DNA of 64,000 nucleotides from a virus (taxonomy: Duplodnaviria > Caudoviricetes). The stretch lies in IMG/VR virus record IMGVR_UViG_3300025066_000007; one strand, given 5' to 3'. The notes beneath the pieces are model-generated. The model ran no database searches, was not told the DNA's origin, and saw only the letters and a list, made by a program, of their open reading frames with translations. The translations under genes were made by a program, and so were the position numbers. Of this stretch, positions 977 through 8,115 are shown in pieces (within the stretch, counting starts at the first letter, position 1; each line of letters opens with the position of its first letter).

Positions 977-2113
977 CTACTTTTGTTCGATTACGACCTT
1001 TTTGCCGTAAGGAAAGTTTACACCCTCGTCCTGCTTACATACGGCCCATAGAACACGAGCCTTCGGCTTGTCTGGAAATGGAGCATAACCGTCTGTAAAC
1101 ACAGCAAGACCATCGTACTTCAGCTCATCAACCATCTGGATAACTGGAGCGAAGCAAGTTCCTCCACGTCCCTTGATAGCAATTGAGGACTTCTTCTTAG
1201 AAAAAGGCTGAGGCTTTCCGTATACCTGCGTATCAAACTGAATAAAATCAACCTCAACGTGATCAATCATTCCGTTTAATTCTGTCGCAAAGTATTCTAG
1301 CTGCTTATCAGAAACAGAGCCCGAAGTATCAAACGCTACGAGCAGACGGCTCGTATAGTTCCTCTTTGAGCCAGGAGAAGTAAAGCCATAACGTCGGTTA
1401 GGACGCATACGAGTGTTCCTTCGTCCCATCATTACAAGCTTGTTGATAAACCAGCGAACTTCCTTCTTCCAGTTAACTACAGGCTTATTGGCCGCGATAA
1501 TTTGCGCGGCAATACCACCCGCAATATTCCCCCAGCCCTTCTTCTCCTGAGCCTTAATCGCCTTTTCGGCAATACCCCTAATCTTTTCCTCGACAATATC
1601 ATCATCGAAGTCTTCCCACATAGAGTGGTCGTCTAGAGTCTCGCCGTACTTTTCGCCAAGCCCTCCAAATCCATCCTCATTTTCTTCAGCCTCTTTCTTC
1701 AGCTTTTCATAGTACCACTCTGCCGACTGATTTTCTTCAAGGCCGAAAGTCGCGGGATAAATCGCCCCGTCAGGAAGTCCTTCAATGTGACAGTTGATTG
1801 CCGCATCGGCAGCAAGGTTATATCCCTTCATGTTATACGCAAAATGTTTTGAGCGCGTCAGGTGATGAAGAAGAATGTGTAGCGCCTCATGCTTCAGCAC
1901 TCCTCGAAGCTCCGTTGCAGAAAGCTTCGCAACGAAATCCGGGTTATAGTACAAAGCTAGGTCTACACGGCGAATTACTCCAACCGCCATAGTTGGCAGG
2001 TCCTTTCGTTCCTTCTTGTTCAAAAAGAGAAAGACCTCTCCATAAAGAGGCCGAAAAGCTACTAGCTTTGAAATAGCTGAGTTTAGCTTATTTTTTACGT
2101 CTACGTTTGCCAT
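977..2113 (-). CDS. Metallopeptidase plus VWA domain protein (DUF2201-like), MoxR partner
   Basis: HEALH zincin motif in the N-terminal half; MIDAS DTSGS, GRGGT and FTDG motifs in the C-terminal half; adjacent to a MoxR-type ATPase. Confidence 0.85.
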   Translation of the reverse strand: MANVDVKNKLNSAISKLVAFRPLYGEVFLFLNKKERKDLPTMAVGVIRRVDLALYYNPDFVAKLSATELRGVLKHEALHILLHHLTRSKHFAYNMKGYNLAADAAINCHIEGLPDGAIYPATFGLEENQSAEWYYEKLKKEAEENEDGFGGLGEKYGETLDDHSMWEDFDDDIVEEKIRGIAEKAIKAQEKKGWGNIAGGIAAQIIAANKPVVNWKKEVRWFINKLVMMGRRNTRMRPNRRYGFTSPGSKRNYTSRLLVAFDTSGSVSDKQLEYFATELNGMIDHVEVDFIQFDTQVYGKPQPFSKKKSSIAIKGRGGTCFAPVIQMVDELKYDGLAVFTDGYAPFPDKPKARVLWAVCKQDEGVNFPYGKKVVIEQK

Positions 2114-2180
2114 ATGTTCTCCATTAAGTAGATGTTTCAGGCACCAGATAACCCCGTGCCTGCCTGCGGGCTAAAGCAAA

Positions 2181-3257
2181 TTAGTTTGAGAGATAAATCT
2201 GCTTTAGATGCTCGCGGAAGTCCTCGTCGGACTGCCATTCCATTACGATCTTCTTAGTCTTCTTTCCACCCAGCATAGAAACCCATGCCTGTGAAGCTAC
2301 ATCATTTGGTAGCATCAGGAAGAAAGAGCGCAGATTAGACCGCTGCTTTTCCTTCATCTTAGTGAGGCTTCGGCTGTTAACCTCCGCAACAACGGACCTT
2401 GACAGAGCGGCGATAACCTCAATGTCATTGCAGGCAGACTCAACCTTCGACTTGACCTTCTCGAAGGTATCAATGACTTCTTCCGGTCGAAGATGCGAAA
2501 ACTCATTCGTTAGAAACTTCTGGAACATAACGGCGATTTCTCGACCGAGCCATCCCTTCGTAACCTGAGTGAGCATTCCGTCCTCAGCCCTAGAGTCAAG
2601 CCCCATATGAGTTAGCGTGTCACTGAACGCAACCCAACTTCGACGTGAAGGATAAATTCGGCCAGCCTCCAGGTTTCCAACCGGAGGGTCAAGAAGGTTC
2701 TGGTTACGGTTAACGAACTCTACTACAGCCTTATGAACCCCGTTGTCCCGTGCCCAATCCATCCACTCTACAGCAGAGGGATCAAAGTCAATGTGGAACC
2801 AGCGGTCATTGAGCGCCGGGTCAAGTTCCACAACGTCGTAATCATCGTCCGAGTTGACAGCCGAAACTACTCGCCAACCATCGGGCAGCTTTTCACCATC
2901 AAGGCGGCGGTCGAGACAAATCTCGAAAACAGCTTGAAGAACATCTTTTGATGCGCGGTTAAGCTCGTCAAAGAAAAGAATTCCCTTTGAAGTCTGAGCA
3001 CGCGGCCACCACTCTTGCTTTAGAAAGCGAATGATATCCTTATCGATATCCTTATGAGGCATTCCCTTGATATCACCAACTTCGCACTGAGAAAGCCTTA
3101 CGTCCCAAAAGCCGTACTCCTCTCCTGACTCTGCCGATAGTTCTTCGGCAACTTGTCGTACTACAGAAGACTTGCCTACTCCATGCTTCGCGTGAAGCAT
3201 GATAGACTTATCATTGGGCATGTTCTTAAGAATCTCTTTGGTCTGACTAATGTTCAC
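2181..3257 (-). CDS. MoxR-type AAA+ ATPase
   Basis: Walker A variant AKHGVGKS, Walker B LFFDELNRA, DPALNDRW arginine finger and SRRSW motif. Start moved to GTG at 3257, which follows an AAGGAG SD. Confidence 0.85.
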   Translation of the reverse strand: MNISQTKEILKNMPNDKSIMLHAKHGVGKSSVVRQVAEELSAESGEEYGFWDVRLSQCEVGDIKGMPHKDIDKDIIRFLKQEWWPRAQTSKGILFFDELNRASKDVLQAVFEICLDRRLDGEKLPDGWRVVSAVNSDDDYDVVELDPALNDRWFHIDFDPSAVEWMDWARDNGVHKAVVEFVNRNQNLLDPPVGNLEAGRIYPSRRSWVAFSDTLTHMGLDSRAEDGMLTQVTKGWLGREIAVMFQKFLTNEFSHLRPEEVIDTFEKVKSKVESACNDIEVIAALSRSVVAEVNSRSLTKMKEKQRSNLRSFFLMLPNDVASQAWVSMLGGKKTKKIVMEWQSDEDFREHLKQIYLSN

Positions 3258-5543: not shown

Positions 5544-6234
5544 GCTTGGCGACCCACTTTGACTTTAGATTTCTATTTGCCAATACAAGTGGAAGAAAAT
5601 CAAGAGGAACCTTCGTTACCATTATGGAAAACGGACGTTTAGCAATCTCCTTCATTATAATCTCACTTAGTTTCTCGTAACCAAATGGTGCAGCCTCTGC
5701 TCCCATGGCTCGAATCTCTGCCATCTTATCGGCAAGCATATCATCCAAACACTCTGCCGGCCCTAGCCTTTCAAAAACTGTTTTTCGAACAACTTTGTCC
5801 TTATCTTTCTTCAAAGATCGCAATACTTTTATAGAGCAGCCTTTAGCCGCAATTCTTCGCTCATTAATTGTCCCGGACTTTGCTAGCTTGTCAAGGACTT
5901 TTATATCCGAGTAAAAGCCATTAGACAAGCAGATCAGCCTAACAGGCTCTGGGCCTGTTAAGAGAGCGCTATCTCCGATAGTAGGATACTTTTTTAGTAA
6001 GCTAAAAACGAAATCTTTAGCATAGTAGGAGCTCCACCTATGAGAGCCTAAGAGAGCATCATTATAATTCTTTTTAGAAGCCAGAAGATATCTCGCCTGC
6101 TCCTCCGAAGCTCCGCTCTTTAAGGAGTCTACCCTTGAGCGAAAGCTCTGCCAGTTGCCATAGGTGCTAAATACACTTTTTATCTCCTTTACAAATTCGC
6201 TATTACTATTACTATTGCTCACAGCATCTATCAC
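5515..6234 (-). CDS. HEAT-like repeat hypothetical protein
   Basis: Repeats such as LKKDKDKVVRKTVFERL and LADKMAEIRAMGAE. Confidence 0.55.
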   Translation of the reverse strand: MIDAVSNSNSNSEFVKEIKSVFSTYGNWQSFRSRVDSLKSGASEEQARYLLASKKNYNDALLGSHRWSSYYAKDFVFSLLKKYPTIGDSALLTGPEPVRLICLSNGFYSDIKVLDKLAKSGTINERRIAAKGCSIKVLRSLKKDKDKVVRKTVFERLGPAECLDDMLADKMAEIRAMGAEAAPFGYEKLSEIIMKEIAKRPFSIMVTKVPLDFLPLVLANRNLKSKWVAKLVQQRMEAS

Positions 6235-7057
6235 CTTCCGTTTCTAGTTCATTCATATTTTTTACAAAAAAACCCGCAGCATTCTTGTGACCTCCGCCAC
6301 CAAACTCCAGAGCTATAGTAGACACATCCATCCTATTCTCCTTTGACCTTAATGAAAACCTAAATTTTTCTCCGTCGAAGTAGTACACCGCAGCAAATTC
6401 TTCATCTTCACATAGAATGTTTCCTATTTCCGATTGAAAAGACGAAGAGTTTACTGCAGGAACATTTTCCCCTGCAATATTTAGACGATGAACATTTGAG
6501 AGCATCATCTTCACCAGAGTTTCTTTGTACCTGAGAATATCCCCTCCAGCAGAAACAACCTTGCTCCACGCTGGAGAGCACGGCTCCCCAAGCTCCAGGC
6601 TCAAGCGGTTCCATTCGGAAAAGCTTTTTTTATGCGAATCAACTACAGACAATACCTCTTCGGCCTTATCTAGCTCCCAAGTCCACAAGTCTCTGTCTTG
6701 AATATACCTAAGAAGAGGTGGGACAGGCTTTCTTTTAAAGAGAAACTTCCATGCCAAAACTGCTCCAGATTGGCTCATATCGAAATGGCAATACTCCAAA
6801 TCTCCGCAGCTTTCTTGGGAAGTCTTATGGTGGTCAATGACCGTTAGCGTGTTCGCTTCCTCTTCTAACTCTTCCAATATAGCCCTAGGATAACAAAAGT
6901 CAACAATAAATACATCGCGTCCAGTGACCACCGGAGGCTCGTCGCTATGACGAACCGGAACATATTTAGCTTTCGCTCCATACTTCTGATAAAAAGCCCA
7001 CGCTGCGCCGAAGCCATCTGGACAGCCGGCATGATAAAGAACCGTTACTCTTGACAC
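6212..7057 (-). CDS. DHH/DHHA1 family phosphoesterase (NrnA-like)
   Basis: YHAGCPDG, IVDF, IDHH and C-terminal GGGGHKNAAG motifs; GTG at 7057 follows GAAGGAAG. Confidence 0.85.
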   Translation of the reverse strand: MSRVTVLYHAGCPDGFGAAWAFYQKYGAKAKYVPVRHSDEPPVVTGRDVFIVDFCYPRAILEELEEEANTLTVIDHHKTSQESCGDLEYCHFDMSQSGAVLAWKFLFKRKPVPPLLRYIQDRDLWTWELDKAEEVLSVVDSHKKSFSEWNRLSLELGEPCSPAWSKVVSAGGDILRYKETLVKMMLSNVHRLNIAGENVPAVNSSSFQSEIGNILCEDEEFAAVYYFDGEKFRFSLRSKENRMDVSTIALEFGGGGHKNAAGFFVKNMNELETEGDRCCEQ

Positions 7058-7058
7058 T

Positions 7059-8089
7059 CTACACTTCCTTCGGGGAATAAGAATACACAATATCCTCAAT
7101 TAAAATACAATTAGCGTTTATCACTTCTGTTATAAAATCACACATAATGTTTAAGCTTGAGAAGGATCGAATTAGACCTTCATGAATAAGCTTAAACTTT
7201 CCAAACTCTTTTAAGATATCACACTTGCTAATAACTAAATTAGTTGTTCCCGTAAGATTAACTGCCTTAACCAGATAGTCGAGATTCAGCCAATTAACCT
7301 TTCTTGGCCTTCCTGTCGTTACTCCAAACTCTTCTCCCATTTTAGCGATTACAGACAAGTCCTTATCTTCAAGCAAACTGCTTGGAAATCTCGGATCTTC
7401 CCCAGACTTCGTATCATATATCTTTGCAGCGCCCCAAATCGCATTAACCCTCTGAGGCGGAAACCCCAGAGAGCAAGCGCCATAAGGCAGGGTGATAGAA
7501 GAAGTTACATAAGGATAAAGGCCATGATCAATATCAAGCCAAACGCCCTGCGCTCCTTCACACAAAAGCCTTCCCTCTAACTTCTCATCCCAAATATATT
7601 TCGGATCCAATACATCTTTTGCCAAGATTCCAATTCTAGCCGCTTTATCCGCATAGCAAGGGGCTATTCCCCTGCCCGTAGTTCCAAGCCTTGGAGCCAA
7701 ATGCTCCTTATCATAGGCTATTTGAGAATCAGTTACGATATGACATTTTGGAGAAACCTTGATCAGCGTAGTATCAAATCCATTTTTATCCAAGTAAGAA
7801 ACCTCTTCTTCAAAGGAGCTTGGATGCAAGATGCACCCAGGGCCAATAACAGAAGTTACTCCATAAAATACACCAGATGGAATTAAGTGAGTTTTATACT
7901 TTTCTCCATCGACCCATACGGTGTGTCCTGCGTTATTACCCCCTGCCCATCTTGCCACAACATCATAGTTGCCACTACTCGCCAGATGTGCAGTAATCTT
8001 TCCTTTTGCTTCGTCACCTTTTTATGTTGAGATTGACCCGAAGGTCAACCCCAGCATAAACCGACGACAATATCTGCCTTATCGATCAT
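7059..8089 (-). CDS. purA: Adenylosuccinate synthetase interrupted after codon 14 by a 32-nt bypass-type coding gap (predicted 332 aa)
   Basis: ATG at 8089 encodes MIDKADIVVGLCWG. After the gap the frame resumes at 8015 with DEAKGKITAHL...ARWAGGNNAGHT, GTTGRGI, EGAQG, PYVTSS and TTGRPR, all PurA motifs. The ORF track only shows 7059..7958. Confidence 0.92.
8016..8050 (-). other. Putative programmed translational bypassing (ribosome hop) element
   Basis: GGT(8050-8048) TGA CCTTCGGG TCAATCTCAACATAAAAA GGT(8018-8016): matched codons, stop codon directly after take-off, 8-bp stem with cUUCGg loop, stops in all three frames. Confidence 0.8.
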
Positions 8090-8115
8090 GCTGAATTCTC
8101 CTTTTTGATTTTGGT

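Follow-up and report, generated by a model that had tools for sequence, protein, structure and literature searches.

A T4 gene 60-like ribosomal hop as the probable mode of expression of an interrupted purA gene in an uncultured marine jumbo phage

Results and discussion

The gene purA, which encodes adenylosuccinate synthetase, is interrupted within the codons for its active-site loop (P-loop) in an uncultured marine jumbo phage. It is probably expressed by a programmed ribosomal hop over the interruption, a reading to which we assign a probability of about 0.8, and this hop would resemble that of bacteriophage T4 gene 60 in its working while standing outside the cassette family of that gene. 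The gene lies in a stretch of 64,000 nucleotides (nt), here called the window, within the 211-kb IMG/VR record IMGVR_UViG_3300025066_000007 (G000; estimated to be 63% complete). A hop had been proposed earlier from the letters of the window without database searches (the sequence-only reading), and it is now supported by comparative data, namely selection on the gene, conservation of the insert, varied inserts at the same codon and a 5' stem-loop in every carrier. The purA insert looks like a second natural phage family of gene 60-style decoding.

Anatomy of the interrupted gene

The gene is located on the minus strand, where an open reading frame (ORF) of 14 codons (8089-8048) ends in GGT-TGA and is followed by a hairpin, a second GGT and a PurA body of 319 codons, with 32 nt between the first and the second GGT. 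The features of the site are as follows.

8098..8103, minus strand: Shine-Dalgarno (SD) sequence AAGGAG of the interrupted purA, ending 8 nt before the ATG (from sequence)
8089-8087, minus strand: start codon ATG (from sequence)
8048..8089, minus strand: upstream ORF of 14 codons, MIDKADIVVGLCWG, encoding strand beta-1 and the first P-loop Gly (peptide kept in uninterrupted relatives)
8051..8094, minus strand: 5' stem-loop, start-codon region paired with codons 9-13, adjoining the take-off codon (from folding and consensus structure)
8050-8048, minus strand: putative take-off codon GGT, last codon of the upstream ORF (from sequence)
8045..8047, minus strand: UGA stop, predicted to be in the A site at take-off, context UGA-C (from sequence)
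8022..8059, minus strand: take-off stem-loop, with the apical part GGUUGACC-UUCG-GGUCAAUC at 8050-8031 (from folding and conservation)
8019..8047, minus strand: coding gap of 29 nt, UGA through AAAAA, predicted to stay untranslated (from sequence)
8016..8018, minus strand: putative landing codon GGT, the same as the take-off codon (from sequence)
7059..8015, minus strand: downstream ORF encoding the PurA body, P-loop Asp through stop TAG at 7061-7059 (from profile and structure matches)

The gap's 3' portion (8027-8019) is A-rich, free of G and unpaired, and the sequence between the take-off hairpin and the landing GGT reads ACAUAAAAA. The first codon to be decoded after landing would be GAC (8015-8013), which specifies the catalytic Asp, followed by GAA GCA AAA GGA AAG. 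All three frames are closed within the gap, by TGA in frame 0, by TGA in the +1 frame and by TAA in the target -1 frame, and the earliest in-frame start downstream, GTG 7958, lies beyond the P-loop, which would be removed by its use. The coordinates and the codon count of the sequence-only reading were exact, and inspection of the frames confirmed both the three blocked frames and the P-loop-deleting start that it had described. The possibility of an assembly artefact, which it had also raised, is answered by the finding that insert and flanks are identical in five independent assemblies (Logan SRR5702761, SRR5699121 and SRR5704419, GenBank GCA_024449815.1 and ENA ERZ27249141); the insert is real.

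In public gene calls for at least 15 contigs the product has only 299 amino acids and begins at GTG 7958 (window 7062-7958, minus strand), and for this reason the P-loop and the N-terminus are absent from the database entries of this protein. As the first in-frame start, and the one used by these gene calls, GTG 7958 might be taken to yield an N-terminally truncated enzyme, or one of two polypeptides that assemble. However, an enzyme begun there would lack strand beta-1 as well as the entire P-loop (GDEAKGK) including the catalytic Asp, both of which are invariant in the family, and neither a start codon nor an SD sequence precedes GDEAKGK. The conserved 20 codons upstream of GTG 7958 and the 14-codon stub would moreover be unexplained unless they are translated as one chain, and we consider this the least probable of all the alternatives weighed here. 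Re-initiation was rejected because there is no in-frame start before GTG 7958.

Identity of the protein

The PurA body matches Pfam PF00709 (3.8e-78), the family alignment beginning exactly at the P-loop GDEGKGK, and its closest solved structure is that of a bacterial PurA, 4m0g (3.7e-58). Besides this profile match the protein has the catalytic motifs of the PurA family (GDExKGK with the Asp, GGxNAGHT, TTGRGI, GxTTGRxR and (S/T)KxD), and the motifs GDEAKGK, GGNNAGHT, TTGRGI, EGAQG, GVTTGR and SKCD are invariant in our family alignment (A1). With ~333 amino acids the phage PurA is short when compared to the ~430 of bacterial enzymes.

The mark of the related PurZ is a Ser which replaces the P-loop Asp of PurA (10.1101/2025.10.22.683976). 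An identity as PurZ was rejected because this Asp is present (GDEAKGK) and because PurZ 6fko is matched at only 2.8e-13 as against 3.7e-58 for PurA; as the protein does not show the marks of PurZ, its PHROG 1211 label was not followed. A nucleotide search of cultured phage records gave no match, and a protein search found distant PurA genes only, with at most 40% identity and none belonging to this family. Contigs labelled as giant-virus MAGs (GVMAG; L053, L059, L061, L064-L067 and others; L numbers are our handles for loci) contain a short PurA that is 54-60% identical to the phage enzyme, uninterrupted and set in AT-rich contexts.

Relatives with and without inserts

Members of this phage purA family were collected in three scans, which yielded ~160 loci and ~100 distinct sequences. 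Marine metagenomes are the source of nearly all of them, and many are on contigs of 100-395 kb. Most relatives read TGG-GGN-GAY-GAR without interruption. Nine distinct variants have an insert at exactly this Gly codon, and in all nine the take-off GGT is followed immediately by a stop.

Long class, window: insert 32 nt, stop TGA, landing GGT
Long class, L002: insert 30 nt, stop TGA, landing AGC
Long class, L011: insert 29 nt, stop TGA, landing AGC
Short class, L003: insert 12 nt, stop TAA, landing AGT
Short class, L032: insert 12 nt, stop TAA, landing GGC
Short class, L008: insert 13 nt, stop TAA, landing GGC
Short class, L018: insert 13 nt, stop TAA, landing GGC
Short class, L144: insert 13 nt, stop TAA, landing GGA
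Short class, L133: insert 14 nt, stop TAA, landing GGC

The long class is characterized by a stop-CC-UUCG-GG hairpin with an A-rich tail, while in the short class the TAA is placed in the loop of a hairpin formed by the Trp-Gly codons UGGGGU and the following ACCCC(A). GGT occupies this position in 9/9 insert variants vs 40% of 93 uninterrupted genes. A slow codon would stand in the A site at take-off throughout, UGA in the window and TGA or TAA in 9/9 variants, and take-off and landing triplets could be read by the same peptidyl-tRNA, as GGT/GGT in the window and as GGT/GGC, GGT/GGA or the near-cognate GGT/AGY in the relatives. The matched-codon rule of the sequence-only reading is not universal in the family, since three relatives land on AGC or AGT.

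The two ORF segments of the window give the conserved protein only if the block between them is skipped, and no alternative frame or start achieves the same. Insert lengths are mostly not multiples of three, and a single reading produces the canonical WG-DEAKGK in every variant, namely that the tRNA(Gly) in the P site leaves GGT and moves to the triplet before GAY. Hopping as one mechanism would account for every insert length from 12 to 32 nt.

A frameshift or a readthrough instead of a hop would yield a PurA with additional residues before the P-loop. The frame needed is open in the short class, where a +1 shift (13-nt insert) leads to WG-NYP-GDE, a -1 shift (14-nt insert) to WG-LNTP-GDE and the 12-nt insert could be passed by readthrough of TAA. 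However, three different mechanisms would be required across sister sequences, the target frame of L011 is blocked, and with all frames blocked the window would need two separate shifts which add ~10 residues to the P-loop. A slippery motif is absent, and the AGC or AGT triplets of three lineages, if translated, would place Ser at the invariant P-loop Gly, whereas under a hop they are never decoded and the Gly stays. Among the alternatives we place this one third, as highly improbable. Reassignment of UGA (codes 4 or 25) was rejected since reading through UGA gives the wrong frame in the window and in L011. With all window frames and the L011 target frame blocked, and no in-frame start before GTG 7958, the two halves would be joined only by a hop.

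Selection on the gene and on the insert

Between insert carriers fourfold degenerate sites are 24-48% identical, that is saturated, while the non-synonymous divergence (dN) is 0.19-0.34 and its ratio to the synonymous divergence (dN/dS) is ~0.1-0.18 where computable. Both halves of purA are under purifying selection: in the last 11 codons of the upstream ORF, 5 synonymous and 0 non-synonymous changes separate the window from L002, and the catalytic motifs downstream are kept. This bears out the earlier argument that the intactness of both sides speaks for selection. Relative-rate counts against uninterrupted sisters revealed no general acceleration (11 vs 8 unique changes for the window).

The insert itself is conserved as well. 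Its first 28 nt are identical at 27/28 positions between the window and L002, as compared to 37% at the neighbouring fourfold sites (P ~4e-11), and the sole difference, a C to U change, replaces one G-C pair in the lower stem by G-U. L011 retains the hairpin, with one G-U and an additional C-G pair. Because the flanks have diverged, this conservation is not accounted for by recent transfer. It follows that the gene has long been functional with the insert and that the insert is constrained as an RNA structure.

These data also bear on the suggestion that the gene is broken, either as a pseudogene or by a recent mobile insert, and that full-length PurA is not made. Such a view would be in keeping with the premature stop at codon 15 and with gene callers reporting nothing but the 299-residue product from GTG 7958. 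Yet the 319-codon ORF is intact across carriers whose synonymous sites are saturated and whose dN/dS is low, purifying selection acts on the 14-codon stub, the insert is conserved and the rates are not accelerated. Nine independent "breaks" at one codon, all with a Gly-like landing triplet before GAY, are furthermore unlike decay. A broken gene is therefore very unlikely, ranking second among the alternatives.

RNA structures at the site

Folding of the 101-nt region gave -30.1 kcal/mol (z = -3.2), a stability reached by 0/200 shuffled sequences, and the hairpin is not due to chance. The cUUCGg-capped take-off hairpin of the sequence-only reading is real, but its length of 8 base pairs (bp) was understated, as the stem reaches 11 bp (8053-8028), or 16 bp with two bulges (8059-8022, -20.3 kcal/mol). 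In the 211-kb record only one tetraloop-capped stem, that of a terminator-like hairpin, is longer, and when this record was scanned for further stop-plus-tetraloop hairpins at the end of an ORF, none of the same type came to light. As it is not followed by a U-tract, the purA hairpin does not itself resemble a terminator. Elsewhere in IMG/VR the exact hairpin 19-mer occurs only in L019 and L020, in unrelated context and without an interrupted gene, and was set aside there as a chance match.

The 54 nt on the 5' side of the take-off codon fold at -17.5 kcal/mol in the window and at -13.7 to -20.4 kcal/mol in 9/9 carriers, as compared to a mean of -6.7 and a minimum of -11.1 kcal/mol in 89 uninterrupted relatives, all of which the window lies below. 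A 5' stem-loop is present in 9/9 carriers and in 0/89 uninterrupted genes. For the long class, the window, L002 and L011 share a consensus 5' stem-loop in which one pair is compensatory and several changes on one side only keep the pairing. This pairing is the reason why the nucleotides GGT-TTA-TGY-TGG are unusually conserved in these genes. In the short class, codons 2-4 pair with the Leu-Ala-Trp codons, and Lys AAG covaries with Ala GCU and Arg AGG with Ala GCC (AAG..GCU vs AGG..GCC). The 3' arm ends right at the take-off codon in both classes, suggesting that it would be inside the ribosome at take-off and freed only by forward sliding, an arrangement that has been proposed for gene 60 (10.1101/2022.08.31.505936). 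As the lower part of the take-off stem overlaps this 3' arm, the take-off stem and the 5' stem-loop are alternative structures. An SD-like AGGUGA overlapping the landing codon was considered as a landing aid and dropped, as L002 and L011 lack it.

A strong hairpin between identical GGT triplets could also mark the insert for an RNA-processing enzyme, in which case the 32 nt would be removed by splicing, editing or cleavage and ligation before translation and a continuous ORF would be read. Inserts of 12-32 nt are however far below the size of group I or II introns, a search of Rfam matched no family, and the relatives that land on AGC or AGT do not have matched flanks. A stop immediately following the Gly codon, an invariant take-off GGT and an adjoining 5' stem-loop are translational signals which excision would not need, and the context in this phage is bacterial (SD sequences, a bacterial-type release-factor gene). 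Bulge-helix-bulge splicing is not known from a bacterial context. Removal at the RNA level is accordingly very unlikely, although it is the least improbable of the alternatives to the hop.

Proposed mechanism

While the anatomy of the site, its conservation and the selection on both halves are observed, we infer the hop itself, its efficiency and the role of each RNA element as follows. The ribosome would start at ATG 8089, translate 14 codons and come to a halt at the weak stop UGA-C in the A site, its P site being occupied by peptidyl-tRNA(Gly) paired with GGU 8050-8048. Take-off would be favoured on two counts: no other bacterial stop context is as weak as UGA-C, and termination is less efficient when the last residue is Gly. 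The take-off hairpin would hinder release factor 2 (RF2), as has been shown for the near-identical hairpin of T4 gene 60. The anticodon would then be released and the mRNA would slide through, and codons 9-13 on leaving the exit channel would pair with the start-codon region to form the 5' stem-loop, by which forward movement would be favoured and backward movement hindered. The tRNA would pass over the GGG and GGU triplets buried in the 3' arm of the hairpin, scan the unstructured A-rich tail and re-pair with GGU 8018-8016. Decoding from GAC would give ...GLCWG-DEAKGK..., an intact P-loop with the catalytic Asp, and the predicted tryptic junction peptide of the hop is ADIVVGLCWGDEAK.

Mobility of the insert

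In a tree of 57 sequences the carriers are scattered among uninterrupted genes, and its well-supported branches force at least 4 state changes; L144 is sister to the uninterrupted L014, and L018 to the uninterrupted L112. Directly upstream of the interrupted purA of L018, on the other strand, there is a 283-residue ORF (2011-2862, minus strand) with matches to DUF7487 (1e-22) and to PHROG 3339, "homing endonuclease" (1.3e-16). A 56%-identical copy is found at the same place in L144 (5-706, minus strand) and in L145, and a remnant of 28 residues in L008 (2782-2865) and L029. No copy was found beside uninterrupted purA genes, and a wider search for relatives of the L018 endonuclease returned three distant matches only.

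Upstream of the insert the short-class genes share the endonuclease gene, an inverted-repeat leader, a strong AAAGGAGGTG ribosome-binding site and a new N-terminus, MSKL..., whereas the part of each gene that follows the landing triplet is similar to that of its own uninterrupted sister. From this it follows that the short insert is the 3' boundary of a homing cassette, made up of the endonuclease gene, the leader, the ribosome-binding site, a 17-codon 5' end of purA and the 12-14-nt insert. This cassette invaded purA repeatedly in several lineages.

The N-terminus encoded in the window is of the resident type. By analogy with the short-class relatives and with T4, the insert probably represents either a relic of a mobile element targeting the conserved P-loop DNA or its immunity mark, and would be tolerated because ribosomes can hop over it. 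It may be an older cassette without its former endonuclease, or it may have arisen separately. The earlier idea of a mobile insert that shields a homing-endonuclease site is supported for the short-class relatives, with their adjacent endonuclease gene and the cassette boundary at the insert; for the window we extend it by inference.

Comparison with known bypass systems

The T4 record HM137666.1 reads GGA TAG CCTTCGGG CTA TCT ... GGA, with an annotated bypass region of 50 nt and mobA directly upstream; the take-off sequence that the sequence-only reading had given is exact, and its parallel with the window holds. In gene 60 the release factor is hindered by a compact A-site hairpin, which has C-G pairs and a UUCG loop (PMC5462505). 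The stop is needed there as a slow codon, and a 5' stem-loop and an AU-rich 3' gap contribute (10.1101/2022.08.31.505936). Each of these features has its counterpart in the window.

The purA site shares with gene 60 a Gly take-off codon that is followed immediately by a stop and forms part of a stem-loop's 5' arm, the tip of this stem-loop being composed of the stop, CC-UUCG-GG and the complement of the stop. Also shared are the matched Gly landing codon (in the window), the skipping of cognate Gly triplets buried in the hairpin, and a separate 5' stem-loop adjoining the take-off site, which is an analogous structure and not a homologous sequence. A freestanding homing endonuclease and repeated invasion of the site are common to both as well, in the case of purA for the short-class relatives only.

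The two systems differ in the host gene (topoisomerase II vs the P-loop of purA), in the gap (50 nt vs 29 nt, corresponding to a 32-nt hop, in the window) and in the stop and Gly codons, which are UGA and GGU in the window. The upstream ORF of gene 60 has 46 codons with a nascent-peptide signal, whereas that of the window has 14 and encodes an ordinary PurA N-terminus. The SD-like (A)GAG(A) ~6 nt 5' of the gene 60 landing site (10.1101/2022.08.31.505936) is not present in the window, and some purA relatives land on AGY. The alignment between both systems is limited to the 8-nt hairpin tip, the endonuclease of T4 is MobA (HNH) and that of the purA relatives DUF7487/PHROG 3339, and the window differs from the gene 60/MobA cassette in location and homology, the gene being purA and no endonuclease having been found in G000.

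The 10-nt inserts of the terminase gene of Streptomyces phage PhiHau3 (PMC10732093) are proposed to be passed by a short hop, likewise in an essential phage gene, and there a stem-loop with 5' stimulatory elements draws the landing codon near, which resembles the 12-14-nt short class. In that case, however, the A-site codon is the rare sense codon UUA and a regulatory role has been proposed (PMC10732093), whereas purA has the stops UAA or UGA and the element of the window is of the long, gene 60-like type.

The byps of Magnusiomyces capitatus mitochondria are, as far as they are described in 10.1101/2022.08.31.505936, mobile inserts of 27-55 nt at many sites in conserved coding sequence which are bypassed to give normal proteins, and the insert of the window falls within this size range. 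By the same account they differ in being mitochondrial, in having an A-site sense codon that lacks a tRNA, and in their 81 copies per genome, spread like GC clusters, while the purA element occurs once in 211 kb and has bacterial-type signals. In the unprogrammed short hops over stops in E. coli (Weiss et al. 1987, as cited in PMC10732093) the peptidyl-tRNA also re-pairs with a matching codon a few nt past the stop. Such hops are of low efficiency and belong to artificial or accidental contexts; the purA site, in contrast, has dedicated and conserved RNA structures.

Several points weigh against a programmed hop in the window. The proposal rests wholly on comparative sequence analysis. An upstream ORF of 14 codons makes a nascent-peptide anchor of the gene 60 form impossible, as the sequence-only reading had stated, and the efficiency of the hop may be low; short peptidyl-tRNAs tend to drop off. 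An SD-like element on the 5' side of the landing codon is absent, as the stretch from the hairpin to that codon is free of G, and the near-cognate AGY landings of three relatives strain the rule of matched codons. The frame of the short class could also be restored by single events (a +1 shift, a -1 shift or readthrough) at the cost of 3-5 residues added before the P-loop. L018 shows 15 vs 4 unique amino-acid changes against its sister. Finally, neither the DUF7487, GIY-YIG and HNH_3 profiles nor tblastn with the L018 endonuclease detected a homing endonuclease in the 63%-complete record of the window.

Generality and significance

Efficient programmed bypassing in bacteria and phages has long been known from one natural system, T4 gene 60 and its homologues, all of which are topoisomerase genes. 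A 2022 survey found gene 60-type cassettes in topoisomerase genes only, and those working on gene 60 knew at that time of no similar case reported in other phages (10.1101/2022.08.31.505936). Our search of open-access papers and preprints found no report of bypassing in purA. The purA site would be an independent system in another gene and provides a natural allelic series of nine variants, whose gaps range from 12 to 32 nt, whose stop is UGA or UAA and whose landing triplet is cognate or near-cognate. Its 14 upstream codons would permit a direct test of whether a nascent-peptide signal is needed or RNA structure alone is enough. It would also be the second link between a bypass insert and a homing endonuclease, in this case of a different endonuclease family, strengthening the idea that hops in conserved coding sequence evolve as immunity marks of selfish DNA.

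When IMG/VR was scanned for GGN-TGA-CCTTCGGG-TCA, 84 loci were returned, mostly terminators. One of the others, L266:2840-4167 (IMGVR_UViG_3300030108_002132), contains a gene for the large subunit of terminase split by GGC-TGA-CCTTCGGGTCA-G-TTTACTTT-GGC. GGC-TGA, the same hairpin, UUUACUUU and a second GGC are situated between ...SPESLIGEG and IDYLVIDE (Walker B motif). The halves match PHROG 2 at 264-360 and 364-599 and would be contiguous only if 26 nt are hopped; Pfam recognised neither half, while PHROGs recognised both. All relatives with a readable junction are uninterrupted (15/15), including the closest one at 94% identity. Within the gap of L266 the target frame has no stop, which is compatible with a -1 frameshift. 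L266 is a candidate for a third gene family with a gene 60-like mini bypass. A further locus, L193:6565-6800 (IMGVR_UViG_3300002895_000002, 213 kb), shows GAT-GGT-TGA, the CCTTCGGG hairpin and AAGAG 6 nt before a GGC landing codon with a gap of ~45 nt; it is a gene 60-type cassette and probably one of the UGA-type metagenomic cassettes catalogued in 2022.

On these grounds it is conceivable, though we would put it at somewhat less than an even chance, that a portable bypass module lets mobile inserts and homing cassettes settle in the most conserved codons of essential phage genes without an intron or intein. Such a module would comprise a Gly codon with a following stop, a hairpin of the form stop-CC-UUCG-GG, an adjoining 5' stem-loop, a short spacer rich in A/U and a Gly-like landing triplet, and would need no nascent-peptide signal. 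Both classes of purA, the L266 terminase and gene 60 would then be instances of one strategy, and the series of 12-32-nt gaps with the AGY landings would define its minimal rules. The truncated 299-residue gene calls pose a problem of annotation, and other split phage genes, such as the terminase of L266, may hide the same signal.

Other genes of the phage

Seven tRNA genes are located at ~28896-62755 of the window (minus strand): Ala-TGC, Asn-GTT, Glu-TTC, Tyr-GTA, Arg-CCT, Ser-GGA and Arg-TCT. A dedicated tRNA-Gly for hopping was looked for, and the record contains no phage tRNA-Gly.

A release-factor-like gene lies ~11 kb before the start of the window (L182:1927-2602, minus strand; G000 C1 ~132,426-133,101), with matches to Pfam RF-1 (3.9e-33) and PCRF. 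Its 5' ORF ends in ...TAT CTT TAG C and continues in the +1 frame, which is similar to prfB with UAG in place of UGA, and its tripeptide region reads SPL vs SPF of RF2. As a speculation, a release factor of the phage could affect the competition at the UGA take-off site.

In all relatives purA is followed directly by a DHH/DHHA1 phosphoesterase gene (PHROG 4771, 1.3e-78; window 6212-7099, minus strand), and the stop codon of purA and the start codon of this gene often overlap.

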